This document shows, one piece after another, positions 1,630-62,782 of a stretch of 64,000 bases of DNA (position 1 is its first letter; the number at the start of each line of letters is the position of its first letter). The notes under the pieces were generated by a model. That model was not told where the DNA came from. It did no database searches and was given only the letters and a program-made list of their open reading frames with translations. The position numbers and the translations under genes are program-made. Origin of the DNA: Patescibacteria group bacterium (GTDB lineage Bacteria > Patescibacteriota > Saccharimonadia > UBA4664 > SCTI01); assembly GCA_004297735.1 (NCBI GenBank), contig SCTI01000002.1:160-64159 (forward strand), given 5' to 3'.

Positions 1630-2031
1630 TTAGGTAGTTGAGGGAGTCTTGATGCGCCAGTAGCCTCCGGGCATTTTAGTGGCCACCACCTCTTTATTGC
1701 GATCAAAGCCGGCGTAACGGAGCAAATCCTGCTCTATTGTTATACGTCCCTGCTTTGAATCCATGGTGGTTTCCATCATGCCTTCGAGCAACTGATCGGC
1801 CATGTCGGCTAGCTCGCGATCAAAAACGATCGGAGTGGCTCCATTACCCTTCCACTGTCCACTGAGTGCGGTTTCCATTTCGTTGTTCCACACCGCCTCA
1901 CTGTACACATGTAGGTAGTTACCAAAGCCGCGAGTGATGATAACCTTACCGCTTTCAAATTCAGGGCGAAGTTCAGCTGGAATTGTCAGCCGATTTTTGT
2001 CGTCCAATTTGCGCTTAAAGTATCTCATCAA
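1630..2031 (-). CDS. mraZ: Transcriptional regulator MraZ
   Basis: 133 aa, two-repeat MraZ architecture (KLDDKNRLTIPAELR.. / KQGRITIEQDLLRYAG); first gene of dcw-type cluster. Confidence 0.8.
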   Translation of the reverse strand: MMRYFKRKLDDKNRLTIPAELRPEFESGKVIITRGFGNYLHVYSEAVWNNEMETALSGQWKGNGATPIVFDRELADMADQLLEGMMETTMDSKQGRITIEQDLLRYAGFDRNKEVVATKMPGGYWRIKTPSTT

Positions 2032-2089
2032 ACTCTTTCTGCCTCTCTTTCAACCCTCTATGTGCTACCTTGTGTAACCCATTGATTAG

Positions 2090-2145
2090 ATAATACTACC
2101 CACTGCTACCCACTGTCAACGATTTTCTCTATTATTTTACCCACT
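2090..2145 (-). promoter_or_regulatory. mraZ promoter with MraZ operator: three GTGGGTA direct repeats (minus-strand sense), two at 10-bp spacing inside the TTGACA-N18-TATTAT spacer
   Basis: plus-strand tacccac at 2096-2102, 2106-2112, 2138-2144; tgtcaa 2114-2119 and ataata 2090-2095 are the reverse complements of the -35/-10 boxes. Confidence 0.6.
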
Positions 2146-2159
2146 TTATGCATGAATAC

Positions 2160-2188
2160 AAAAAAGACCACCTAATCAGTGGTCTTTT
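2160..2188. terminator. Bidirectional intrinsic terminator (AAAAAAGACCAC-ctaatca-GTGGTCTTTT)
   Basis: Perfect 8-bp GC-containing stem flanked by A-tract and T-tract; lies 3' of the minus-strand ORF 2246-2539. Confidence 0.6.
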
Positions 2189-2245
2189 ACAATAATTGCT
2201 GGGGTTGGCGCATGTAGGGCTACTGCCCCACCTGCGCCGGAACGG

Positions 2246-2539
2246 CTACCCCAAGCGGCGCATCTCGTCGATCATGCCGTCGATCTCGCGAACGCGATTG
2301 CGTCGATGCCGACGCCCACCGTGGCGGACCGGAGGCTCGTGGAGACTCTTGGTCACCTCCTGCGGGCTGCATCCCCTCTCGCGAGCGATATAGCCGACAC
2401 GTAGCGCGGCCTGTTCGTAGCTGAGCCGATCGTCCACCGAAATCTCGTGCAGGGTCGGAACTGGGAAGCCCCACTCGATTAGGAGCCGTTTCGCATCCTG
2501 TTCCGAAAGCGTCTGATTCAAGTCAGGTGCAACTGTCAT
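2246..2539 (-). CDS. Hypothetical small protein, high-G+C autonomous mini-gene (98 aa from internal ATG with SD GGAGGT)
   Basis: ORF track 2246-2608; better start MTVAPDLNQ.. at 2539 preceded by GGAGGTCACGCCGT; own consensus promoter and terminator; G+C visibly above neighbours. Confidence 0.45.
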   Translation of the reverse strand: MTVAPDLNQTLSEQDAKRLLIEWGFPVPTLHEISVDDRLSYEQAALRVGYIARERGCSPQEVTKSLHEPPVRHGGRRHRRNRVREIDGMIDEMRRLG

Positions 2540-2577
2540 ACGGCGTGACCTCCGTGGTCGTTTGGGTACCGTTGCTG

Positions 2578-2612
2578 TGATTTTACAGATGTGAGCGTGT
2601 TTTGTCAATACT
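2578..2612 (-). promoter_or_regulatory. Consensus sigma70-like promoter TTGACA-N17-TAAAAT driving the 2246-2539 mini-gene
   Basis: minus-strand reading TATTGACAAAACACGCTCACATCTGTAAAATC; shares the ATTGACAAAA and CTGTAAAATC words with promoters at 19.9, 21.0 and 21.6 kb. Confidence 0.5.
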
Positions 2613-2647
2613 GTTAAACAAGTTTGACGAACAATATTAAATAATGA

Positions 2648-4036
2648 TTAAAACTTGTCGAGCTGAGCCTGAACTTCGTCCGCTAGCCCATCGATCTTAA
2701 CTCTCACCTGTTCCAAAGTATCGCGGTGACGAATGGTAACCGATTTGTCCTCTAGGGTGTCAAAATCAATCACAATACATAATGGCGTGCCAATCTCGTC
2801 CTGGCGGCGGTAGCGCTTGCCGATATTGCCGTTGTCGTCATACATAACCGCGCCGAACTGCTTTTTGAGGTCGGCGTAAACGTCCTTGGCAACCTTAACC
2901 AGCTCAGGCTTGTTGCGCAGCAGCGGCGATACCGCTACCTTTACCGGGGCTAATTGCGGCTTGAGCTTAAGCACGGTGCGGTCATTCTTGTCGTCCTGCC
3001 AGTAAGCGGCAGTCAGAATAGCCAGCACGGTTCGGTCCACCCCAAAGGTTGGCTCAATCACGTGCGGGATAAATCGCTGGTTGGTGGTTGGGTCGAGGTA
3101 GCCCACATCAACCCCACTGTGCTTGGCATGGTTGCTCAAATCAAAATCGGTGCGGTAAGCCAGGCCGTACAACTCCTTTACGCCAAACGGAAACTCAAAC
3201 TCAAAGTCGATCGTTTTTTTGGAGTAGTGAGCACGGTCAGCCTCGGGAACGTCCAGGTCGTGAATACTGGTCTTTGGCAGGCCAATCAGCTCCATCCAAT
3301 CGCGCATACGCTGCTCCCACTCGGCAAACTGCTGCTCCCACTCCCCTTCGGTCACAAAGTACTCAATCTCCATCTGTTCAAACTCGCGGGTACGGAAAAT
3401 GAAATCTTTAGGTGTGATTTCGTTACGAAAGGCCTTACCGATCTGCGCCAAACCAAACGGCAGCCGTGGATGAATACTATCCATAACGTTTTTAAAGTTT
3501 ACAAACATACCTTGAGCGGTCTCGGGGCGCATATAAACTTGGTTGGCGCTATCCTCGACCACCCCGGCCCGGGTCTCAAACATCAGATTGAACTGACGAG
3601 CGTCGCTCAGTTCGTTGCCCTCCGGGCTCTTGATGCCAAGCTCTTTAATCTTGGCGCTCATTTGGTCTAGCGTCATCCCAACTGGGTCAATATCATGCTC
3701 TTCCAGTAAATGATCCACGCGATAGCGTTTGCGGGTCTTCTTGTCCTCAACCAGTGGGTCGGCAAAGCCGGCGCCGGTGTGCCCACTGGCCTGCCAGACA
3801 CGAGCGTTCATTAAAATAGCGGCATCGACACCGTACATATCATCGCGACTATCAACAAAAAACTGCCACCACAGCTGTTTAATATTGTTTTTAAGCGCCA
3901 CTCCATAAGGACCATAATCCCAGGTACCAGCTAGACCGCCGTAAATTTCGGATCCCTGAAAAATAAAGCCACGTCGCTTGGCCAGCGAGACCAGTTCATC
4001 GATTGTAGGAGTTTGAGTGGTTTTTTTGTCGGCCAT
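2648..4036 (-). CDS. glyQS: Glycine--tRNA ligase (homodimeric alpha2 type)
   Basis: 462 aa; N-terminal FQGSEIYGGLAGTWDYGPYG and class II core typical of GlyRS. Confidence 0.9.
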   Translation of the reverse strand: MADKKTTQTPTIDELVSLAKRRGFIFQGSEIYGGLAGTWDYGPYGVALKNNIKQLWWQFFVDSRDDMYGVDAAILMNARVWQASGHTGAGFADPLVEDKKTRKRYRVDHLLEEHDIDPVGMTLDQMSAKIKELGIKSPEGNELSDARQFNLMFETRAGVVEDSANQVYMRPETAQGMFVNFKNVMDSIHPRLPFGLAQIGKAFRNEITPKDFIFRTREFEQMEIEYFVTEGEWEQQFAEWEQRMRDWMELIGLPKTSIHDLDVPEADRAHYSKKTIDFEFEFPFGVKELYGLAYRTDFDLSNHAKHSGVDVGYLDPTTNQRFIPHVIEPTFGVDRTVLAILTAAYWQDDKNDRTVLKLKPQLAPVKVAVSPLLRNKPELVKVAKDVYADLKKQFGAVMYDDNGNIGKRYRRQDEIGTPLCIVIDFDTLEDKSVTIRHRDTLEQVRVKIDGLADEVQAQLDKF

Positions 4037-5263: not shown

Positions 5264-7666
5264 CTACTGCAGCAGCGGAAGCTGCTTAGCAATTGGCAAG
5301 GTAAAGCTAAACCGACTGCCCTTGCCCTCACGGCTGCTAACCCAAATTTTACCACCATGTGATTCAACCAAATTCTTAACAATATAGAGTCCCAAGCCGG
5401 TACCGCCAGCCTGAACGCTCATTGGGTTGTAAATCCGGCCGAACTTCTGGAACAGACGCTCTAGGTGAGCCGGAGTGATGCCGACCCCTTCGTCTTTAAC
5501 GCTTATAACCAGCTCATTACCTTGAGCCTTAAAGTCGATTGAAACCTCGCTCTTAGGTAGAGAGTACTTAATGGCATTATCGACCAAGTTAACCAAAATC
5601 TGCCGCAACCTCACCTCGTCAGCCAACACCAGCGGCAGCTTGTGCTTGCGATTAATCTTTAGCATGATCTGGCGCTCAAATCCTTTGCTCGCCAGTTCGG
5701 CCACTACATCATTAATGAGCGGTTCAACCGCGGTTGGGGCAATTTTGAGCTTGATCTTGCCGCTTTCAATATAGCTAGCGTCCAGCAGATCTTCTACCAA
5801 ATGAATCATACGCTGGTTGGTCTGGTAGACCCTTTCCATAAAGTACAGTTGACGATCGGTTAATGGACCAAAATCCTTTTGCACCAACATACTCAAAAAC
5901 CCTTTAATCGCGGTTAATGGCGTGCGGAGTTCATGCGACACAATTGAGATAAAGTCGCTCTTAACCGCCTCTACCTCTTGCTCACGTTGAATGTTGCTAA
6001 TAATTACGATGCCGCTGGTCACGTTACCGCTGTCGTCAAAGATTGGCGAGCAGCTAATTTCGGTCCACAAAGCCTGGCCGTTCTTGGTCTCAATCAACTG
6101 CTGCCGCTTGGTAACAACCTCGCCTTCCTGTAGTACCTTCCGCAACGGTGTCAGCATCGCCATACTGGTACCTTCGGGAGTCATCGCCTTAACCACATCG
6201 TGGAACGACCGCCCAATCGCCTCCTGCATGGTAAAGCCGGTTAGCTTACTGGCGGCCGGGTTAAAACCAACCACCTTGGTATCACGGTCAAAGATCAGGA
6301 TCCCCTCTTCGGTAAAGGTAAACACCGCCTCCCATCGTTCACGGCGAGCGTTAACCTCGTTGTACAGCTCCCAGTTTTCAATGATCACCGCTAGCCGTGA
6401 GGCAACCAGTCGTAGCAGCTTGGCCTCGTGCGTGTTATAGGCCGAGTCTCGGTGGCTGACCTTGATCACGCCCAGGGCTTTAGAGTGGTAAGTGATCGGC
6501 ACGGTTAGCATGTGGCTTTTGGATATCGCCCCATCATCAATCTCTGGATTATAGGTTTGAGGTTTACGTCGCAAAAACGCCTCCACCACCGGATGATACG
6601 CCCCTAAATGCCACTGGCCGGCATGTTCATGAAAGTGCGTGCTGGTCGCCACCCGCTTAAGCAGCTGCGAATCGGGCTGATACAAGTAAATGCTGACGTT
6701 GGGCGACTCCAGCAGCTGGCTGATCATGGTTAAGTACTTTTTATAGATTTGATCAAAACGGAAACCAACAAAACCACTCAGTTCCGCCAGACTGGATAGC
6801 TCGCGTGAGTGCTTGTTAGCTAAGCGAGCCATCTTGTTGGTCTCAATCGTCTTTTCGACCAACGTGGTGACGTCTCTAGTGGTGATAATGGCGCCCTCGT
6901 ACCGATCGCCGCGAATTAACGGGCTAGCAACCAACTGTAAGTGCTGAATCTTCGACCCAAGATCGGCCTCGGCGTAAAAAGTGGTCTCCCGCCGCTGCTT
7001 AACCAGACCTAAAACCTTATTAATATCGGTATCAAAGCTCAAAAAGCTGGTTACTTCGGGTTGAGCCAAGGCCTCGGTGATTGGCTTGGCCGGCAGCACC
7101 TGGTTAATAATCTCGAACCGCGAACTAACCGTCGTGACCACATCATCGGCGTCAAGAATAATCATGCCAATACTGTGGTTTTGTTGAATCGCGCGCAGCT
7201 TTTCTTGCTCAGCGTACAGGTGGGTTTGGTCGCGAAGGTTGATAAGGACGCCCATAATGCCATCGTTAATGTCCCGATACGGACCCAGCACCGCCTCAAT
7301 TGAGGTGGAGCGATCATCGCAGGAGATTGACATGACCAAGCGCGATTCCTGGCCGGACAGAGCACGCTTAAGAGCTCCATCGGCGTTGTCGTAAGTCAGT
7401 GGCGTTTCGTCTGGGCTGCCGTTGGGCGACTCCACCAACCCCAGAAAGGTGCGGCCGTTAATCTGCTCTTCAGGCAAGCCAAGCAGACGTGCTGCGGCTG
7501 GATTACTGTAGGTGATTACCCCGTCTTGATCTAAACAAAGCAAGCCGTCACGCATACTCTCGCGCATTCGGTCCAACTCGTTTTTAACCTTGGCAGTGGC
7601 GACTTTGGCTGGTGCCGCCACAACCGGCTGCTGGTAGAAATTTGTGGTTCGCCGCGCCATCATCAC
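5264..7666 (-). CDS. Sensor histidine kinase with multiple PAS/GAF domains
   Basis: 800 aa; H-box [15 protein letters not shown] and HATPase_c G-boxes ([19 protein letters not shown]) at C-terminus; PAS-like repeats upstream. Confidence 0.85.
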
Positions 7667-18194: not shown

Positions 18195-19517
18195 CTAGTG
18201 CATCGCCGCGGTCACCGTGGTGGTGGTCCCCGGTGTGTCCGAGTCGGTGATGACGACCGCGGAGTCGAACGACCCGGGTGTCCCGGGCGTCTCGGCCTTG
18301 ACGTCGGTGTTACCCGTCGTCGTGACCGTGCCGCCGGTGCCGGTCGCGGTAGCCGTGATCGTCACCATGCCCGCGACCGAAGTCGCCCACATGGTCACCC
18401 GGTAGCACTTGGTGCCGGTCGGGCACGGTGTGCCATCCCAGCGGTACGGAACCGAGATCTTGCCGGCAAACCAGGCCGACGCGTTGCCGCTGGTGATGAC
18501 CGCGTCACCGCTGGCGCCTTCACCCGAAGCCTCGTAGTAAACCTGGCAGTTGCCAGTCACGAAGATGTGGGCGCAGGTCGTCAGCTGGATCGACGGCGGT
18601 GGAATCACCGGCGGAGGCGGCGTGACCGGGGGCGGCGGCGGAGGCGGAACCTCCTTCTTGCAGATATCCCCGTTCACCGTCACGTAGTTGCCGTTGCCGA
18701 CCACCACGATGCTGCACTCCGCAACGATCACGAAGCACTGCTGGATCTGCGAGTTCCACACGTGGTTCTGCTCGGCCTTGCACTGCTGCTCAGCCGAAAC
18801 CACCTGGCCGGGGGTTGCGGTTGGCGGGACCTCAGCCGTCGGCGGGATCTTGCGAACCAGCCGCCTCTTGACCGACTTGACCTTCTTGACGAAGGCCCGG
18901 ACATACGTCTTGCACTTCTGCCACTTCTTGCCGGCCACCACGTTACGGCAGTAGGCCTTCATGAAGGGGCGATACGAGACGCACTCCTTGTACTTCTGGT
19001 GGTAGGTGGTGCTCGTCTCGATCGTCTCGTCGACGTACACCTCCGTCTCACCGGTCGCGTCGTTGTGCACGAACTGCTCCGGCGAGATCGAGATGACCTT
19101 GCTGGTGGGCTTCCCCACCGGCTTCGGCTTCCCGACCCGCTTCTTGCTCGTCGACCGAACGGCCAGCACACCCATGTGGGAATGCCGGTAGTTGCCGTCG
19201 AATGTCGAGTAGACGCCCCCGCTGCACGAGGTGTTGAACGACAGCGTGTAGCCGCCCGGGGTGGTCGTGAAGACCACCTTCGGCGACTGCAGGAACGCCA
19301 TGACCGACTGGTCCTGGTGCATGTAGCCCTGCTCGATGAGCTTGCGCTTCATCGAAGGCAGGAACTTCTTGCCCGCCGGCGTCTTGTAATACGCGACGGC
19401 GCCGGCCTTCGAGGTGAAGCCCGGACCGCAGTACGCCTGGGCCGGCGCGGCGGCGCCGAACGACATCAGGATCGCCGCCACCACGGCGGCGATCGACAGC
19501 ATGACCTTGCGGAACAT
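18195..19517 (-). CDS. Hypothetical secreted Cys-rich protein with poly-Pro linker and Thr/Gly-rich C-terminus; high-G+C xenolog
   Basis: Start chosen at MFRKVMLSIAAVVAAILMSFGAAAPAQA (signal peptide) preceded by GGAGGT; ORF track extends to 19781 in frame; PPPPPPPVTPPPPVIPPPS linker; G/C-rich third positions. Confidence 0.55.
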   Translation of the reverse strand: MFRKVMLSIAAVVAAILMSFGAAAPAQAYCGPGFTSKAGAVAYYKTPAGKKFLPSMKRKLIEQGYMHQDQSVMAFLQSPKVVFTTTPGGYTLSFNTSCSGGVYSTFDGNYRHSHMGVLAVRSTSKKRVGKPKPVGKPTSKVISISPEQFVHNDATGETEVYVDETIETSTTYHQKYKECVSYRPFMKAYCRNVVAGKKWQKCKTYVRAFVKKVKSVKRRLVRKIPPTAEVPPTATPGQVVSAEQQCKAEQNHVWNSQIQQCFVIVAECSIVVVGNGNYVTVNGDICKKEVPPPPPPPVTPPPPVIPPPSIQLTTCAHIFVTGNCQVYYEASGEGASGDAVITSGNASAWFAGKISVPYRWDGTPCPTGTKCYRVTMWATSVAGMVTITATATGTGGTVTTTGNTDVKAETPGTPGSFDSAVVITDSDTPGTTTTVTAAMH

Positions 19518-19883
19518 GGTGACCTCCAGGGTCGTGGGACGGATGAACTTGATGAATCGGCTGACGAACTTGTCAGCCGTCTGGCGGGTGAGGTGCACGT
19601 TGGGCATGACCCCTCCTTTCGGATGGCTGACAAGACTACCGCGTAGCCCAACTACGCGGTTACGGTGATGTGTACCGAAACCTGGGAATATATCGTGGGC
19701 GGCACAAATATATTCCCAGAGTACGGCACACAGCCTAATCGCGTAGAGGACTGTGCAAATGTCTAGTTCTATAGGTATCAAGGGTCTTGATGACCCATGA
19801 CTATCTAGCTTGTCAATGTCCCCTCATCTGAACCAGTTCGGTTGATTTCTCCACCTCACCTCTGTTCTTCAGAGTGAATATAA

Positions 19884-32031: not shown

Positions 32032-33072
32032 CTACTTAAACTGGGTTGGCACCAAGATATCCTTGAGCGTATCGATATCCTCTAGCACCAGACCGGTCCC
32101 CCGCGCCACCGCCGTTAGCGGGTCATCGGCCACGTGTACCGGCATCTTAGTTTGCTGCATCAGTAGAGCATCCAGGCCTTTAAGTAAGGCGCCGCCGCCC
32201 GCCAAAACAATGCCACGCTCCAAAATGTCCGCCACCAGCTCTGGCGGAGTCTCCTCGATCGTGATCTTAACCGCCTCAACAATCTCGCGAACACTCTTAG
32301 CTAGCGCCTTCCGAATCTGCTCATTGGTTACCTGAACCTCTTTTGGCAAACCGGTCACCAAATCACGCCCCCGCATCGGCATCGACTTAGGCTTGTCTAG
32401 CTGGTGAGCCGCTCCGACCGTTACCTTAATCTGCTCAGCGGTCCGCTCACCAATAGTCAGGTTGAACTCATCGCGAGCAAACTGGATAATGTCTTCGCTT
32501 AGTTCGTCACCGGCAACCCGGATACTGCGGCTGGCCACAATCCCACCCAGCGAAATCACCGCGACCTCGGTGGTACCACCGCCAATATCGACAATCATTG
32601 AACCGGCTGGATCCTGAATTGGCAGTCGACAGCCGATCGCCGCGGCCATTGGCTCTTCGATGAGGAAGGTCTGGCGGGCGCCGGCGTTGGTGGCGGCGTC
32701 TTCCACCGCGCGCTTTTCCACCTCGGTTACGCCGCTGGGGATGCCAACCACCACCCTTGGTCTGGCCAGCAAGTTCCAGCGCTGGGGATGCACCTTGTCG
32801 ATAAAGTAGCGCAACATCTGCTCGGTAACCTCAAAGTCGCTGACAACACCGTCTACTAGTGGTCGGGTCGCCACAATACTGCTGGGAGTACGCCCAACCA
32901 TCTTTTTAGCCTCGTCACCAATGGCTAATACCTGGTTGGTTTTGGTGTTAATTGCCACCACGCTTGGTTCGTTGATCACAATCCCACGGCCGCGCACATA
33001 CACCAGGGTGTTAGCGGTCCCTAGATCGATCCCAATATCGTGCGAAAATCTTCCGAGTAGTCGGTCAAACAA
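32032..33072 (-). CDS. mreB: Rod shape-determining protein MreB (actin-like)
   Basis: 346 aa; IGIDLGTANTLVYV phosphate-1 and actin-fold motifs. Confidence 0.95.
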   Translation of the reverse strand: MFDRLLGRFSHDIGIDLGTANTLVYVRGRGIVINEPSVVAINTKTNQVLAIGDEAKKMVGRTPSSIVATRPLVDGVVSDFEVTEQMLRYFIDKVHPQRWNLLARPRVVVGIPSGVTEVEKRAVEDAATNAGARQTFLIEEPMAAAIGCRLPIQDPAGSMIVDIGGGTTEVAVISLGGIVASRSIRVAGDELSEDIIQFARDEFNLTIGERTAEQIKVTVGAAHQLDKPKSMPMRGRDLVTGLPKEVQVTNEQIRKALAKSVREIVEAVKITIEETPPELVADILERGIVLAGGGALLKGLDALLMQQTKMPVHVADDPLTAVARGTGLVLEDIDTLKDILVPTQFK

Positions 33073-33339
33073 TGTCTATACCAGCGTTACCATCTTGAGT
33101 TAGTTTAACAGGTTTGAGGGGTTTGAGGCTAGGGGTGACTTAGGGCGGCTTCACCTCCATGTGCTGTTTTGTAAAATGGGCTGTTTAAAGATTTTTAAAC
33201 GAGAGCAGCCGCGCGCTACCTGAGAATATTCCTTTAAAAAGTAAATTTTGGCCCTCACACCTGTTAAAAGATCCTTAAACAGGTGTTTTGCTATAATTAG
33301 AGCTAAGAGCTCTTCACATCTGACCGAAAGAAGTCGCAC

Positions 33340-33510
33340 ATGGCCATTAAACACGACTGCACTTACGAGGAGTTCGAACCCCCCGAAATTCGTCGCGTCC
33401 GCGAGCGCCTCCAGGAGCAGCTGGCCAGACAAGGCATCGCCCTCCGAGGTCGACCTCCTGTCTGGGTTGTCGGCGCCAGCATCAAGCCTGTTTCAACCAG
33501 AACCAAGTAG
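33340..33510 (+). CDS. Small hypothetical GC-rich ORF (56 aa) with own extended -10 promoter and terminator
   Basis: ATGGCCATTAAACAC... to TAG at 33508-33510; not in ORF track (<60 aa); preceded by TGcTATAAT and followed by hairpin+T-tract. Confidence 0.3.
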   Translation: MAIKHDCTYEEFEPPEIRRVRERLQEQLARQGIALRGRPPVWVVGASIKPVSTRTK

Positions 33511-33515
33511 CTCAA

Positions 33516-33560
33516 CGGGCCCGGGTGGAATGTTCCTACCCGGGCCGCAGTGTTTTTTAT
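33516..33560 (+). terminator. Intrinsic terminator (GGCCCGGGTGG..CCACCCGGGCC + TTTTTTATT)
   Basis: GC stem then T-tract on the plus strand in the 500-nt mreB-proS intergenic region. Confidence 0.6.
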
Positions 33561-33575
33561 TGAGTAATAATTAGA

Positions 33576-34823
33576 TTATTTGAAAAGTTTGAGAGCTTCG
33601 GCGTGCGAGACAAGCTTTGACTCCGCTTCGTTACGACGTTTTACTTCGACACTGTTTTCTTTGAGCGTCTTAGGGCTAACCGTTAATCGGACCGGCATAC
33701 CCATCAGGTCGGCGTCGGCGAACTTGGCGCCAGCTGGAATGTCACGGTCGTCGTAAATTGTTTCAATACCCTGCGCTTTAAGGTCAGCGTAGAGCTTGTC
33801 GGCGGCCTTGACGACGTCTTCATCCTCACCGATTCGAACAATGTGAGCCTTTGCCGGCGCAATCTCTTCTGGCCAAATCATGCCTTTATCGTCGTGGAAC
33901 AGCTCAATCAGTACGCCCATAACGCGCGCCGGGCCAATACCGTAAGAACCCATGATGACCGGCTTAACCGAGCCATCCTCATCGGTAAACTTGAGACCGA
34001 GTGGGTCGGAGAACTTGGTACCGAGCGTAAAAATGTTACCAACCTCGGAGGCGTTAACCTTTTCGAGCTTGTTTTTATCGAGGCCAAGATCGTTAAGGAC
34101 CTCATCGGTGTAAACCTCTTCGTTGACGGCCAGCTTCTTGTCGCGATCTAGGTAAATAACATCCTCTCCGGCCTCAATTATGGCCTGGAACTCATGCGAG
34201 TACTTGCTAAAACTGCCGCCGCTGGCAAAAGTAATAAAGGTGTGGTCACCGATTCCAAGGCGCTGAAATACTTTGGTGTAAACCTCTTTCATTTTTTCGT
34301 AATACTCATCATGCTGCTTTTGGTCGCGGCTAAAGGAATAGAGGTCCTTCATAATAAACTCGCGCGTACGCATGATGCCGCTCTTGGCCCTAACCTCATT
34401 GCGGAACTTGGCCTGGAACTGGTAAACATACTGCGGCAGATCACGGTAGCTGCTAATGTTTTCAGCCATTAGCTCGGTTAGCGGCTCTTCGTGAGTAAAA
34501 CCAAGACCCAGCTCGGTGTCGTTGTGCAACTTGGTGCGGAACCAAACGTCGACCTGCTTATCGTCCCAACGGTTGGTTTTTTGCCACAGTTCGGGCGGCT
34601 GCAGCGCGGTCATGGTTAGTTCCTGGCCGCCGGCTGCATTCATCTCTTCGCGGATGATGCCAATAATGCTGTTGAGCGTCTTGAGGCCCAGCGGCAGCAT
34701 AACGTAAGCACCGGCCATCTGCTTATGAACAAAGCCCGCTCGCAGCAGTAGCTGAGCGCTAATTGCCTCCTCATCCCTGGGAGCTTCACGTCTAGTCTTG
34801 GTAAAAAGTTGAGATAGTTTCAT
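33576..34823 (-). CDS. proS: Proline--tRNA ligase (short form lacking insertion editing domain)
   Basis: 415 aa class II; MRTREFIMKDLYSF motif 2 region. Confidence 0.85.
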   Translation of the reverse strand: MKLSQLFTKTRREAPRDEEAISAQLLLRAGFVHKQMAGAYVMLPLGLKTLNSIIGIIREEMNAAGGQELTMTALQPPELWQKTNRWDDKQVDVWFRTKLHNDTELGLGFTHEEPLTELMAENISSYRDLPQYVYQFQAKFRNEVRAKSGIMRTREFIMKDLYSFSRDQKQHDEYYEKMKEVYTKVFQRLGIGDHTFITFASGGSFSKYSHEFQAIIEAGEDVIYLDRDKKLAVNEEVYTDEVLNDLGLDKNKLEKVNASEVGNIFTLGTKFSDPLGLKFTDEDGSVKPVIMGSYGIGPARVMGVLIELFHDDKGMIWPEEIAPAKAHIVRIGEDEDVVKAADKLYADLKAQGIETIYDDRDIPAGAKFADADLMGMPVRLTVSPKTLKENSVEVKRRNEAESKLVSHAEALKLFK

Positions 34824-53268: not shown

Positions 53269-55002
53269 ATGAGTGAAAGTGATAAAACTGTGACTCTCGC
53301 TCAAGCGCCCAAGAAGGCGCTGGTGTATCTCCGTGTGTCCTCGGCCCAGCAGGCCGAGACCGACTACGACGTTGAGGGCTTCTCGATCCCAGCTCAGCGC
53401 GAGGCCTGCAGGCGCCGTGCCGCGGAGCTAGAAGCTGAGGTCGAAGCAGACTTCGTCGATCGCGGCGAGTCGGCCAGAAGCGCTGACCGCCCAGCCCTGC
53501 AACGGATGCTGGCCAGGCTTGAAGCCGGCGGCATCGATTACGTCATCGTCCACAAGCTGGATCGACTGGCGCGTAACCGGGCCGACGACGTCGAGATCGC
53601 GATGCGGATCAAGGCAGGCGGTGCGGTGCTGGTCTCCGTCACCGAGAACATCGATGAGACGCCATCCGGGATGTTGGTTCACGGAATCATGTCCTCGATC
53701 GCCGAGTTCTATAGCCGCAACCTGGCCTCAGAGATCGTCAAAGGCTCCCGGCAGAAGGCCAAGAACGGCGGCACGCTGACCCGGGCGCCCATTGGGTACC
53801 TGAACGTGCGCGAGTTCGTAGATGGCCGCGAGATCCGCACTATCGGTATCGACGAGGAACGAGCGCCGTACGTGCAGCTGGCGTTCGAGCTCTACGCCAC
53901 CGGCAACTACTCGCTGTCGCAGCTCTCCACGCTGCTCGAACACCAGGGGCTGCGTTCCCGGGCTACTCGCCGGCGGCCGAGCGTCCCGGTCACGGCCAGC
54001 AAGCTTCAGGCGATTCTGCGCAACCCGTACTACAAGGGCATCGTCTCCTACCAAGGCGAGAGCTTCCCCGGTCGGCATCAGCCGCTCGTTGACGACGATC
54101 TGTTTGAGCGAGTCGGCCAAGTCCTCTCCGGCAAGAAGCTCAGTGGCGAGCGGGACCGCAAGCACCGTCACTACCTCAAGGGCTCGCTCTACTGCGGCGA
54201 GTGCGGCCGCCGTCTGACGTTCAGTCGCAACACCGGCAATGGTGGCTCCTACGACTACTTCGTCTGCAGTGGCAAGCAGCGCAAGACCTGCAGCCAGGGA
54301 TATCTGCGCACCGATCACATCGAGGCTGAGGTCGAGAAGCTCTACGCGACAGTCCAGCTGACGACCAAGCAGCGCGCAGAGATCCGCCGCCTGGTTGAGA
54401 CACACCTCGATGCCATGCGGGCGGTGACCGACGCCGAAGCCAACAAAGCCACGGCTGAGATCACAAAGCTGCTGCGCGAAGAACGCAAGCTGCTTGAGCT
54501 GTACTACGCAGACCTCGTGAGCCGCGAGGCCTACGCCGAAGAGACCAAGCGGATTGCCGACGGCAAGCGGGCCGCCCAGCGACGTATTGACGAAGCTTCA
54601 GGAACTACACAGGAGCTACTCGAGGCACTCAACCGTGCGCTGGAGATGACAACCAACGCGCACAAGACCTACCTGATGTCCGACTTCACCGGACGCCGCC
54701 TAATGAACCAAATGTTCTTCAAGCGGATCGAGGTCAAGGCCGACGAGATCGATGACGTCAAGCTCTCCGACCCCTACGCCCAGCTACTGGCCCAGGACCT
54801 GCTGGCAGAAGCCGAGGAAGCCGCCAGAGAGGCCGCCGCTACCGGCGTCTGGGAGGCCCCGGAACTTCAGGCCGAACCGGCCACAGGGCCCGGAAACCAA
54901 AGAACCCTCGGCCTTTCTTTGGCCGAGGGTTCCATTAGTACTGCTGTCATGGAGCTGTGGGGATTCGAACCCCAAGCACGAAGATTATCGGTCCTTTGCT
55001 AG
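53269..55002 (+). CDS. Large serine recombinase (resolvase/invertase N-domain + recombinase domain + zinc ribbon + coiled coil)
   Basis: LVYLRVSSAQQ catalytic-Ser motif; CGECGRRL...C..C zinc ribbon; 577 aa; last about 17 codons read into the tRNA-like target sequence; SD AAAGGAGGTG. Confidence 0.85.
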   Translation: MSESDKTVTLAQAPKKALVYLRVSSAQQAETDYDVEGFSIPAQREACRRRAAELEAEVEADFVDRGESARSADRPALQRMLARLEAGGIDYVIVHKLDRLARNRADDVEIAMRIKAGGAVLVSVTENIDETPSGMLVHGIMSSIAEFYSRNLASEIVKGSRQKAKNGGTLTRAPIGYLNVREFVDGREIRTIGIDEERAPYVQLAFELYATGNYSLSQLSTLLEHQGLRSRATRRRPSVPVTASKLQAILRNPYYKGIVSYQGESFPGRHQPLVDDDLFERVGQVLSGKKLSGERDRKHRHYLKGSLYCGECGRRLTFSRNTGNGGSYDYFVCSGKQRKTCSQGYLRTDHIEAEVEKLYATVQLTTKQRAEIRRLVETHLDAMRAVTDAEANKATAEITKLLREERKLLELYYADLVSREAYAEETKRIADGKRAAQRRIDEASGTTQELLEALNRALEMTTNAHKTYLMSDFTGRRLMNQMFFKRIEVKADEIDDVKLSDPYAQLLAQDLLAEAEEAAREAAATGVWEAPELQAEPATGPGNQRTLGLSLAEGSISTAVMELWGFEPQARRLSVLC

Positions 55003-59764: not shown

Positions 59765-62700
59765 CTAGCTGCAGCCGGCGGTGCTGCCACAGCTATTGCA
59801 GACGGGGCAAGGCCCACCCTTGCGAACCATCAAGCCACCGCAATCGGAACAGATGCCCGCCACGGACAGGCCGAGGTAGGTAAGCGGCTGCTCCGCAGGC
59901 GAATCCGGCTTGCTACCGTCACCGGTTGTCGAAACAGCAAGCTCCTGCTGAGCTGCCTCCGCGTACTCGACCGGAGTCGACCCACCGGCATCCTCAGCCA
60001 TCTTGCGCTTGCGCACCTCAGGCGTCAAGATGCCGAGCTCCTCCTGGACATCCGTATCCAGGAAGCGGCTGGCCAGCCAGCGCATGATGTAGTCCGGCAG
60101 ACTCTTGGCGAACGGGATCTCGATGTTCTCGGTGATCCCTTCCGGCTCGAATCGCACGAAGCTGAACTTCTCCACCAGCGTCTCAAGCGGCACCCCGTAC
60201 TGGAGCGCGATCGAGATCGCCGTGGCGAAGGAGTTCATCATGCCCTTGAGCGCTGAGCCTTCCTTGCCGAGACCGTTGATGAAGATCTCTCCCATCGTCC
60301 CGTCCTCGTACATACCGGCCACAATGTAGCCTTCGTGACCTCCGAGGACGAACTTGTGAGTGATCGACTTGCGCTCCCGCGGCATCCTCCGGCGAGCCGG
60401 TGTGCCGCGAGCGATCTCGACGAGGATCAGGGTGATCATCTCCGACTCGTCCGCCGTCAGGACCTTGCGGTCACCAATGAGGGACTCGTAGAGATCGCCG
60501 ACTGCCTTGAGTGTGGGCACGCCCTTGATCAGGGCATGCTCGAACACCTCGCACAAGGCCTCGACCGCCGCGCGCTGGATCGGCTCGCCGAGCTCAACGC
60601 CCGACTCGCCCTTACCCATCTGCGCGTCCGTGCGCAGCGCCTGGGCGGTCTTGGACCCATCGCGGTAGATGGCCAGAGCCTTGACGCCGAGGCGCCAGGC
60701 CTGGGTGTACGCGTCAGCGATGTCCTCGACGGTGGTCTCCTGCGGCATGTTGACCGTCTTGGAGATCGCACCGCTGATGAACGGCTGAACCGCACCCATC
60801 ATCTTGATGTGGCCCATGTGGCTGATCGCCCGCTCGCCGACCGCGACATCGAACACCGGCAGGTGCTTCGGGTCGAGACCCGGAGCGCCGATGATCGTGC
60901 CGTGCTCGGTGATGTACTCCTCGATGACCTCGATCTTCTGGTCGTTGTACCCGAGGGTACGCAGAGCCAGCGGAACCGTCCGGTTAGGGATGGTCATCTG
61001 ACCGCCACCAACCAGCTCCTTGAACTTGACCAGCGAGAAGTCCGGCTCGACGCCGGTGGTGTCGCAGTCCATCAGGAACGAGATCGTCCCCGTCGGTGCG
61101 AGCACCGTGGCCTGCGCGTTGCGGTAGCCGTGCTGCTCGCCGAGCGTGACCGCCTGATGCCAGGCAAGGCGCGCCTCGGCCAGCAGATCCATGTCACGAA
61201 TGTGACCATCCGGGATCTGCTGTGCGGCGTCATGGTGCATCCGCATCACCTTGTTGTGCGGCTCGCGGTTATCGGCGTACCTGTCGTACGGACCGATGGC
61301 CGCCGCGATCTTGGCCGACTGAGCGTAAGCCCGACCGGTCATGAGCGCGGTGATGGCCGCCGCCGTTGCCCGACCCTTGTCGGAGTCGTACGGCATGCCG
61401 TTGGCCATCAGGTAGGCACCGAGGTTGGCGTACCCCAGGCCGAGCTGACGGAACGCTCGCGCGTTATCACCGATCTCCTCCGTCGGGTAGGACGAAGGGC
61501 CAACGATGATCTCCTGCGCCAGGAACACGATGTCCACCGCTTGCTTGAAGCGCTCGGTGTCGAACGTGCCATCCTCACGCCGGAACTTCATCAGGTTCAG
61601 CGAGGCCAGGTTGCAGGCCGAGTCATCGACATGCATGTACTCGCTGCACGGGTTCGAGGCGTTGATGCGCCCCGAGTTCGGATCGGTGTGCCACTGGTTG
61701 ATGGTGGTGTCGTACTGCACGCCAGGGTCGGCACAGCGCCAGGCCGCCTCCGCGATGTCTCGCATCAGGTCCCGAGCCGGAATCGGATCGCCGACCGGAT
61801 CCCCGGTCTTGCGAGCGATCAGGTGCCAGTCCTCGTCGTTCTCGACCGCCTGCATGAACTCGTCCGACACGCGGACCGAGTTGTTGGCGTTCTGGTACTG
61901 AACGTGCCTGAAGCCGCGACCGTCGATGGACATGTCGAAGCCCTTTTCCTGCAGAGCCCCGGCCACCTCTTCGGCCTCGACCTTACACCAGATGAACTCC
62001 CGGATGTCCGGGTGGTCCACGTCCAGCACTACCATCTTGGCCGCCCGACGTGTCTTGCCGCCGGACTTGATGGTGCCGGCCCAGGAGTCGGCGCCACGCA
62101 TGAACGACACCGGTCCGCTGGCCGTGCCGCCCTTGCTCAGCGGCTCCATCGAACCGCGGATCGCCGACAGGTTGATGCCGGAACCGGAGCCGCCGCGGAA
62201 GATCTTACCCTCCCGCGTGTTCCAGTCCAGGATCGAATCCATCGTGTCCTCGACACTCAGGATGAAGCAGGCCGAGCACTGCGGGTTCTCTTCGAACCCG
62301 ACGTTGAACCAGACCGGGCTGTTGAAAGCCGCCGCCTGGTCCAGCAGCAGGAAGAGCAGCTCGTCGTAGAAGATCGAGGCCGGGTGATCGGGCTCCTGCT
62401 CACGCAGAACCTCGATCTTCCCCCGCCCAGGACCGAAGTAGCCCCTGGCCATACCCCACTGGGTGATGGTCTTGGCAACCCGGCCGGTCATCTGCCTGAC
62501 CGAGCGCTCACGCGTCGGTGAGCCCAGCTGTCCGCGGAAGTACTTCTGCGCCACGATGTTGGTGGCGTTCTGGCTCCACAACTTCGGGAACTCGACGTCC
62601 TTCTGCTCGAACGCGACCTTGTCGCCGTGACCGATGCGCGCGTCACGGGTCTCCCAGTCGACGGTGTCGAACGGGTGCACGCCCTCCTTGGTGAAGTAGC

Positions 62701-62782
62701 GCGTGATCTTGAGAGGCTTGCTAGCTACGCCGTTATGGGGCGCCGCCAGCGTCTGCTGACCTTCGGTTTCGGTCGATGCCAT
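59765..62782 (-). CDS. nrdJ: Ribonucleoside-diphosphate/triphosphate reductase class II (adenosylcobalamin-dependent), high-G+C xenolog
   Basis: 1005 aa; class II RNR core; C-terminal Cys-rich zinc ribbon CSDCGGLMVRKGGPCPVCNSCGSTAGCS; G/C-rich third positions unlike adjacent nrdR. Confidence 0.85.
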   Translation of the reverse strand: MASTETEGQQTLAAPHNGVASKPLKITRYFTKEGVHPFDTVDWETRDARIGHGDKVAFEQKDVEFPKLWSQNATNIVAQKYFRGQLGSPTRERSVRQMTGRVAKTITQWGMARGYFGPGRGKIEVLREQEPDHPASIFYDELLFLLLDQAAAFNSPVWFNVGFEENPQCSACFILSVEDTMDSILDWNTREGKIFRGGSGSGINLSAIRGSMEPLSKGGTASGPVSFMRGADSWAGTIKSGGKTRRAAKMVVLDVDHPDIREFIWCKVEAEEVAGALQEKGFDMSIDGRGFRHVQYQNANNSVRVSDEFMQAVENDEDWHLIARKTGDPVGDPIPARDLMRDIAEAAWRCADPGVQYDTTINQWHTDPNSGRINASNPCSEYMHVDDSACNLASLNLMKFRREDGTFDTERFKQAVDIVFLAQEIIVGPSSYPTEEIGDNARAFRQLGLGYANLGAYLMANGMPYDSDKGRATAAAITALMTGRAYAQSAKIAAAIGPYDRYADNREPHNKVMRMHHDAAQQIPDGHIRDMDLLAEARLAWHQAVTLGEQHGYRNAQATVLAPTGTISFLMDCDTTGVEPDFSLVKFKELVGGGQMTIPNRTVPLALRTLGYNDQKIEVIEEYITEHGTIIGAPGLDPKHLPVFDVAVGERAISHMGHIKMMGAVQPFISGAISKTVNMPQETTVEDIADAYTQAWRLGVKALAIYRDGSKTAQALRTDAQMGKGESGVELGEPIQRAAVEALCEVFEHALIKGVPTLKAVGDLYESLIGDRKVLTADESEMITLILVEIARGTPARRRMPRERKSITHKFVLGGHEGYIVAGMYEDGTMGEIFINGLGKEGSALKGMMNSFATAISIALQYGVPLETLVEKFSFVRFEPEGITENIEIPFAKSLPDYIMRWLASRFLDTDVQEELGILTPEVRKRKMAEDAGGSTPVEYAEAAQQELAVSTTGDGSKPDSPAEQPLTYLGLSVAGICSDCGGLMVRKGGPCPVCNSCGSTAGCS

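Follow-up and report, generated by a model that had tools for sequence, protein, structure and literature searches.

What does the small, GC-rich unit between glyS and mraZ of a Saccharimonadia bacterium encode, and is it a gene at all? The question arises from a 64,000-nucleotide (nt) stretch of contig SCTI01000002.1 of a Patescibacteria group bacterium (hereafter the window), for which a preliminary description had proposed an autonomous mini-gene inserted at this site, compositionally foreign and possibly serving as a toxin/antitoxin-like, addiction-type or effector gene, together with a similar unit between mreB and proS. We use the working name ORF98 for the open reading frame (ORF) of the first unit, 97 codons plus a TAG stop at window positions 2246..2539 on the minus strand (-), and ORF56 for that of the second. 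With a probability of roughly 0.55, we favor the reading that ORF98 is a small gene restricted to one clade and transcribed on its own, that it encodes a nucleic-acid-binding protein and that the ends of its mRNA are strongly constrained regulatory elements.

A small gene between glyS and mraZ

All parts of the proposed mini-gene, namely promoter, Shine-Dalgarno sequence, 97-codon ORF and terminator, were recovered in the glyS-mraZ gap, and we suggest that positions 2155-2608(-) represent a genuine monocistronic gene that has these signals and a stop-codon hairpin of its own and is conserved in four genomes. A putative sigma-70-type promoter spans 2580..2608(-), with a -35 element TTGACA (2608-2603), a 17-nt spacer and a -10 element TAAAAT (2585-2580). 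The promoter-like site described before is thus present, with an 11/12 match in a consensus scan over 900 nt (1900-2800) that returned four promoter-like sites compared to 0.9 expected from shuffles. The 5' untranslated region (UTR; 2540..2579, minus strand) contains a stretch, GCAACGGUACCCAAACGACCA, that is invariant in the alignments, and the Shine-Dalgarno sequence GGAGGT (2553-2548), located 8 nt ahead of the ATG within a small GACC/GGUC hairpin that is predicted in 4/4 sequences. The coding sequence (CDS) runs from this ATG to the TAG stop and is predicted to specify a helix-turn-helix (HTH)-like module (residues ~40-67) and an Arg-rich tail (residues 72-84). It is followed by a 59-nt hairpin that includes the stop codon (2198..2256, minus strand), with an outer stem UGGGGU/ACCCCA and an inner stem GGCGCA.GGUGGGGC-AGUA-GCCCUAC.UGCGCC (2207-2238).

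An intrinsic terminator with an 11-bp stem and a T-run (2155..2188, minus strand) completes the unit; our scan, in which terminators were called by a hairpin plus T-run rule, located the hairpin AAAAGACCAC...GTGGTCTTTT+T at 2188..2162. The arrangement of a GC-rich hairpin and an ensuing U-run that defines intrinsic terminators is retained in the relatives, where the sequence varies and the hairpin is maintained via changes on both sides. This element ends the ORF98 transcript and probably also stops read-through from glyS. It had been described as bidirectional, which holds for the minus strand, where the T-run rule applies, but fails for the plus strand, where it does not.

A word-index search showed that NCBI already lists the ORF98 protein as hypothetical protein EPO04_01630 from a Patescibacteria bacterium. 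ORF98 occupies the same glyS->ORF->mraZ slot in three other genomes, represented by loci L001, L003 and L091. L001 and a further locus, L005, belong to one genome, L002 is a 747-nt ENA fragment of one of the four ORF98-bearing genomes, and L091 is a 369 kb JGI contig retrieved by a 22-mer from the invariant mraZ leader. Two homologues exhibit 79% and 72% amino acid identity to ORF98 in the alignment (78% and 70% by BLASTP), and both share the gene order glyS -> ORF -> mraZ -> rsmH. Among the window, L001 and L003 (L091 was treated separately), substitutions at codon positions 1/2/3 amount to 10/10/33, 14/13/31 and 8/5/22 for the three genome pairs, with a chi-square probability of about 5e-5 for the third-position excess in the first of these counts. 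The ratio of non-synonymous to synonymous substitution rates (dN/dS) is 0.20-0.34 in these genomes, their sole indel in ORF98 is 6 nt long and in frame, and the start codon and the Shine-Dalgarno sequence are conserved in relatives. Based on the third-position excess, the dN/dS values and the syntenic homologues, we conclude that ORF98 is a real protein-coding gene. While the preliminary description had considered selection on another frame or strand of syntenic relatives, we found the opposite, as the substitution pattern indicates that the proposed 97-codon frame evolves under purifying selection.

The same data bear on the idea that ORF98 is spurious, i.e. a chance open frame in a GC-rich spacer. 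GC-rich DNA yields long chance ORFs, the ORF list contains three overlapping ORFs within the ORF98 region, and the product matches no family. However, a chance frame would be difficult to reconcile with the third-position excess of 10/10/33, the dN/dS of 0.2-0.34, the in-frame indels and the conserved start and Shine-Dalgarno sequence. We consider this explanation highly improbable and, as far as comparative sequence data allow, refuted.

ORF98 is confined to one narrow Saccharimonadales (TM7) clade, with a handful of related genomes. The source organism was placed in the Saccharimonadia/Saccharimonadales by the names that its closest ProS matches carry. When 1.84 billion representative proteins were searched with a profile, only the gene's own cluster was significant; the ORF98 family gave no match in 185,579 GTDB species genomes, and tblastn detected no relative in the 80 GTDB loci whose GlyS is closest (<=72% identity). 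None was found in phage, plasmid and IMG/VR collections either. In the few distant relatives that have mraZ less than ~3 kb downstream of glyS (e.g. L011 and L087), the gap holds other genes. ORF98 is single-copy and resides at a fixed chromosomal site, and no flanking repeats were found around the unit. It is a lineage-specific addition at the glyS-mraZ site that is not recent and not demonstrably mobile. The earlier view that the unit had been inserted receives weak support, from its restriction to a narrow clade and from the presence of other genes between glyS and mraZ in distant relatives.

Ends of the ORF98 messenger RNA

Sequence conservation across the unit is markedly uneven. Mean pairwise identities over the four genomes (window, L001, L003 and L091) are 0.89 for the promoter, 0.87 for the 5'UTR, 0.64 for the CDS, 0.93 for the stop codon plus 3' hairpin, 0.48 for the spacer that follows and 0.64 for the terminator. 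By comparison, glyS, recO and proS are nearly saturated at synonymous sites (dS from 0.9 to above 2). The hairpin and terminator together fold with -50 kcal/mol (z=-4.3 relative to shuffles), and the last codon and the UAG reside in the outer stem of the hairpin. In five distinct sequences with 18 pairs each, 90/90 pair-cells are paired and 16 of the 18 pairs are invariant; the two changes in the stem are both C->U and preserve G.U pairing, and the other three changes map to the loop or the internal loop. By a rough estimate, five random changes would spare all pairs with a probability of about 0.02-0.05. The G.U pairs can form on the sense strand only, which points to a role of the hairpin as RNA. 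Nor can its conservation stem from coding on either strand or from a read-through extension, because the internal loop contains an indel of 1 nt.

Taken together with the invariant part of the 5'UTR, the 59-nt UAG-containing hairpin may act at the RNA level; the two ends would set translation and/or stability of the ORF98 mRNA, and they might serve as a binding site for ORF98 itself. Such a role would account for the ends being kept while the protein evolves fast. Conservation of UTRs above that of the CDS, combined with an incongruent allele (see below), is unusual though not unprecedented. Searches against Rfam 15 produced no match to the hairpin at the gathering score, and a relaxed threshold gave chance-level matches only.

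Several other identities of the hairpin were ruled out. Read-through or recoding of the stop codon is inconsistent with the 1-nt internal-loop indel, which breaks any downstream frame. A dispersed repeat akin to repetitive extragenic palindromic (REP) elements is incompatible with the hairpin being single-copy in the ~735 kb examined. MraZ boxes within the hairpin would be spaced by 22-23 nt rather than 10. Two IMG/VR matches to the hairpin pattern were due to chance, as they lie inside a GHSLGGAVAL coding motif.

Ends and protein are dissociated in L091. GlyS and MraZ of this genome are 90% and 91% identical, respectively, to those of the window, and the promoter, the 5'UTR (88% identity) and the hairpin (94%, with one loop change) are kept. 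The L091 ORF, by comparison, encodes a protein of 93 residues that is only 33-38% identical, and its dN is ~0.7 versus 0.05-0.07 for neighboring genes. Divergence begins just past the first four codons and stops at the last codon. The GlyS of L091 is closer to L001/L003 (94%) than that of the window (91%), so the allele does not follow the relationships among the species. Either a burst of protein change took place in this lineage or the allele was exchanged between conserved ends. In L091 only, an extra 194-residue ORF without a Pfam match lies between glyS and the ORF98 promoter (2531-3115, plus strand), and the glyS-mraZ gap therefore is also a site of gene gain.

These observations could be taken to mean that the unit is centered on its RNA, with the 5'UTR and the stop-codon hairpin (~95 nt with the terminator) as the main functional parts and the ORF as a fast-evolving passenger. 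Such a unit might work as a small RNA derived from the 3'UTR, as an element for processing or stability, or in cis as a regulator of the adjacent mraZ/dcw promoter. Indeed, the ends are far more conserved than the CDS, those of L091 remain 88-94% identical while the protein falls to ~38%, the hairpin is stable and strand-specific, and the unit is always found directly upstream of the mraZ promoter. On the other hand, purifying selection on the CDS is clear in three genomes, and frame, length and core residues are retained even in L091. In addition, there is neither an Rfam match nor covariation, and the terminator intervenes between the hairpin and the mraZ promoter. A stable, conserved hairpin between the stop codon and an intrinsic terminator is reminiscent of 3'UTR stabilizer hairpins and 3'UTR-derived small RNAs, but the conserved part of the ORF98 element is a stem rather than a single-stranded seed, and the hairpin includes the stop codon. 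We consider an RNA-centered unit unlikely, though worth keeping in mind.

The fold of the entire mRNA also bears on the toxin/antitoxin, addiction or effector role suggested in the preliminary description, including a type I-like toxin whose mRNA is inactivated by pairing of its ends. The 5'UTR (CGGUACCC) is paired with GGGUAGCCG at the stop codon when either of two divergent alleles is folded for minimum free energy (MFE), and likewise in the alifold consensus. Type I toxin mRNAs fold back from 5' to 3' end, as in the fbi-tac pairing of hok/sok, and ORF98 resembles them in being a small gene whose Shine-Dalgarno sequence is partly sequestered and for which a 5'UTR-3' closing helix is predicted; a fast-evolving, stand-alone product would also fit. 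However, the closing duplex is not above shuffles, and we dropped it as an established feature. Moreover, there is no partner, as the glyS-mraZ gap contains just one conserved ORF in all four genomes (window, L001, L003 and L091), and no antisense RNA gene was found; the consensus scan detected no plus-strand promoter-like site in 1900-2800, which as a consensus scan only is weak evidence. The product is hydrophilic and basic, lacks a membrane helix and matches no toxin/antitoxin, defense or phage family, and the gene is single-copy, syntenic and not on a mobile element. A toxic or addictive function thus has no support, and we regard it as quite improbable.

Downstream of the unit and not part of it, the region 2090..2145(-) contains the mraZ promoter (TTGACA-18-TATTAT, 2119-2090), which is overlapped by three AGTGGGTA boxes (2097, 2107 and 2138). 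The spacing is 10 nt from the first box to the second and 31 nt from there to the third. These boxes are conserved in relatives and look like an MraZ operator. The 61-nt mraZ leader (within the feature region 2029-2154, minus strand) shows an identity of 0.94 over the four genomes, on par with the ORF98 hairpin. A literature search on mraZ in Saccharibacteria returned nothing relevant, only author-name matches. In the window as a whole, 42 of the 46 long ORFs are in minus-strand orientation, no tRNA gene was found and there was no Rfam match at the gathering score.

The predicted ORF98 protein and its origin

The ORF98 product is 97 residues long, with 14 Arg residues (16 Lys plus Arg; 15 Asp plus Glu) and without a hydrophobic stretch. 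An AlphaFold2 (AF2) model built from four sequences (predicted local distance difference test [pLDDT] 78; predicted TM-score [pTM] 0.67) represents a soluble helical bundle with no membrane helix and contains helices at residues 13-22, 27-35, 41-55, 59-67 and 80-96; an earlier model had a pLDDT of 64, and its Foldseek search was uninformative. Weak hidden Markov model matches (E 1e-5 to 1e-3) connect ORF98 to GC-rich metagenomic proteins composed of repeated HTH_23-type modules, one of which carries the JGI name CsgD-family regulator. When the four-member ORF98 family was compared to an alignment of HTH_23-type modules with hhalign, residues 40-77 were aligned with 91.5% probability (E 9e-7), and pairwise BLASTP of ORF98 against an HTH module gave 43% identity over 42 residues. 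Helix 41-55, the turn G-C-S and helix 59-67 of the AF2 model coincide with the HTH aligned by hhalign. NCBIfam yielded one stretch resembling the BilQ HTH (E 0.068), and Pfam no HTH family for ORF98. The module is followed by an Arg-rich segment, RHGGRRHRRNRVR. Residues common to ORF98 and the L091 allele form a core comprising W23, P26, Y41, ARE..C.P, L66 and PP.

Judging from the profile match, the model and the Arg-rich tail, ORF98 most likely is a small helical nucleic-acid-binding protein. It would be soluble and carry an HTH-like module (helix 41-55, turn GCS, helix 59-67) ahead of the Arg-rich tail, and it may act as a lineage-specific regulator or nucleoid-type protein rather than as a toxin. 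The structure prediction supports this picture in part, in that the geometry of the model is that of an HTH, but no structural neighbor was found for it, HTH proteins included, and a sequence search of the PDB gave no match.

Among known systems, ORF98 can be compared to small stand-alone HTH regulators (Cro/Xre-like, excisionase-like or of the HTH_23/HTH_28 transposase type), with which it shares the size of ~100 residues, the HTH_23-type profile match and the helix-turn-helix of the AF2 model; by our own reading, A-x-x-x-G-C-S...V...L at residues 52-66 also fits the classical HTH motif. It differs from them in falling below the Pfam and NCBIfam thresholds, in lacking a structural neighbor and in possessing an Arg-rich tail and a long C-terminal helix. 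Peptides with Arg-rich motifs recognize RNA hairpins in pairs such as lambda N-boxB and HIV Tat-TAR, and the combination of the Arg-rich segment with a strongly conserved hairpin in the protein's own transcript might be seen as a parallel. The comparison is pure analogy, and the ORF98 hairpin is situated at the stop codon of its own mRNA and not at a nut-like site. Finally, as a family-less hypothetical protein in four related genomes, ORF98 is akin to the orphan small genes of Patescibacteria (candidate phyla radiation, CPR), from which it is set apart by its unusually strong UTR constraint and its incongruently divergent allele.

Could ORF98 instead be a remnant of horizontally acquired or mobile DNA? 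It might, for instance, have been the HTH-bearing N-terminal portion, or the OrfA, of a transposase-like gene contributed by a GC-rich donor, or else a cassette swapped in between conserved ends. Its composition had been termed foreign, and local GC content is indeed raised, to 0.65-0.67 in 200-nt windows compared to ~0.50 to either side of the unit. However, the CDS, with a GC content of 0.616 versus a gene mean of 0.537 (z=+2.3; rank 4 among 47 genes), is not an outlier. The windowed peak comes partly from the 3' hairpin and not from the CDS, many 150-nt windows of the 64 kb reach a GC content of >= 0.63, and the excess in ORF98 is present at all three codon positions and accompanies an Arg/Gly/Pro-rich protein. 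Other points in favor of acquired DNA are that sequence comparison links ORF98 solely to HTH_23 modules of the transposase type, found in metagenomic proteins that are GC-rich and Arg/Ala-rich, that the L091 allele disagrees with the GlyS tree, that both intergenic slots gain and lose genes, and that a serine recombinase is encoded elsewhere in the window. These points are countered by the lack of flanking repeats and of an adjacent recombinase, by the lack of relatives in phage, plasmid or viral collections and of matches to HTH_Tnp families, and by purifying selection and fixation at one site in four genomes. Moreover, divergence in the L091 allele is bounded precisely by the start and stop codons, a pattern more in line with selection than with recombination at random breakpoints. 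An origin as a mobile remnant therefore appears improbable to us.

The three GC-richest genes of the window (GC content at third codon positions 0.77-0.86; mean 0.60) all exceed ORF98 in GC content. They encode a class II B12-dependent ribonucleotide reductase (59765-62782, minus strand), an unknown 528-residue protein whose gene has a long antisense shadow ORF (18195-19781, minus strand) and a large serine recombinase (53269-55002, plus strand). All three may possibly be horizontally acquired DNA.

The proS-mreB slot and the meaning of both loci

The second unit was likewise found essentially as described, with a 56-codon ATG ORF plus stop at 33340..33510 on the plus strand (+), an extended -10 element TGcTATAAT (33289..33297, +; from reading of the sequence) and a terminator composed of a hairpin, GGCCCGGGT...ACCCGGGCC, and a T-run (33518..33556, +; scan call at 33518-33546). 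ORF56 is antisense to the flanking mreB (32032-33072, minus strand) and proS (33576-34823, minus strand). A 53-residue homologue with 55% identity occupies the same position in L005/L006; codon-position differences within the pair are 15/12/25, dN/dS is 0.21 and the indels, of 12 and 3 nt, are in frame. ORF56 has no significant match in Pfam and PHROGs. The two units had been considered similar, and they are alike in being small monocistronic genes, but ORF56 and ORF98 have no sequence similarity. We suggest that ORF56 is a separate, unrelated gene and one alternative occupant of a hypervariable slot, driven from an extended -10 promoter immediately adjacent to one of two conserved operator-like palindromes.

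The palindrome had been reported as a perfect 28-bp repeat at 33260-33287. It actually lies at 33258..33285 (site 2, CACCTGTTAAAAGATCCTTAAACAGGTG), is imperfect, with 13/15 positions pairing and only the outer 8 bp per arm perfect, and abuts the ORF56 promoter; a second copy at 33181..33202 (site 1, CTGTTTAAAGATTTTTAAACGA) in the divergent region between mreB and ORF56 had been missed. Site 2 is perfect in L005 and L094, and the two palindromes are spaced by 80-81 bp in the window and in L005, where the extended -10 element reads TGaTATAAT and has an equal distance from the palindrome. An operator function, as proposed before, is plausible for an inverted repeat that is located at a promoter and whose position is conserved across genomes, but the site is imperfect and duplicated and also precedes a different gene elsewhere, namely an unrelated 248-residue gene in L094. 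A site-1-type copy is present in L095, and none was found elsewhere in the 64 kb or in more distant relatives. Together, these findings make a good case for an operator. The palindromes belong to the promoter frame of the slot and the region upstream of mreB, not to ORF56 specifically.

Almost every related genome has a different small gene in the proS-mreB slot. Its occupants are stand-alone RNA polymerase alpha C-terminal domain proteins of 177 or 332 residues (the latter with several repeats), the unknown 248-residue protein, pairs of 212 and 200 or 116 and 138 residues, or a 157-residue protein; in one case there is no ORF. The slot genes map to 5300-5833(-) in L007, 6634-7632(-) in L010, 3811-4557(-) in L094, 5235-6519 in L009, 4287-5010 in L098 and 4312-4785 in L099. 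The terminator hairpin beside proS is retained in L005 and also in L095, which lacks ORF56. The ORF-less slot of L095 (3749-3934) contains this hairpin, two more short hairpins and the site-1-type palindrome, and could represent a small non-coding transcript or an empty state of the slot. A structured RNA in the ORF56 transcript was rejected (z=-1.3). Its MFE fold pairs the 5'UTR (AGAGCUCUU, 33304-33320) with the stop-codon region (33500-33515), similar to the prediction for ORF98; that fold is not significant at the same z value, and the pairing is not obviously retained in L005.

ORF98 and the palindromes co-occur in three of three genomes, which is the only link between them. One may envisage an autoregulatory RNA-protein module at the mraZ/dcw entrance, in which ORF98 would bind its own hairpin and/or the TGTTTAAAGATCTTTAAACA palindromes upstream of mreB, with the ends staying fixed and the protein diversifying or being exchanged among strains. 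We regard this scheme as rather doubtful.

Four points weigh against our favored explanation, a clade-restricted gene for a nucleic-acid-binding protein with constrained mRNA ends. No family in Pfam, PHROG, NCBIfam or PADLOC matches ORF98 at threshold. The five hairpin sequences contain no compensatory double changes, such that the structure rests on conservation and energy. For the helix between the 5'UTR and the stop codon, the duplex energy is no better than that of shuffles, and all bases involved are invariant. Finally, the case for ORF56, which is probably coding, comes from a single pairwise sequence comparison, and its support is modest. Overall, ORF98 is a small orphan gene of an ordinary kind whose mRNA ends are unusually constrained.

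If ORF98 is merely an orphan gene, the value of the finding is modest. The glyS-mraZ and proS-mreB regions emerge as hot spots of small-gene gain and loss at housekeeping intergenic sites. Saccharibacteria have very small genomes and few recognizable regulators, and a nucleic-acid-binding protein encoded just before the mraZ/dcw promoter, if true, would be a candidate lineage-specific regulator. As its mRNA ends are more constrained than its CDS, ORF98 would also offer a tractable case of UTR-level control in an uncultivated phylum.

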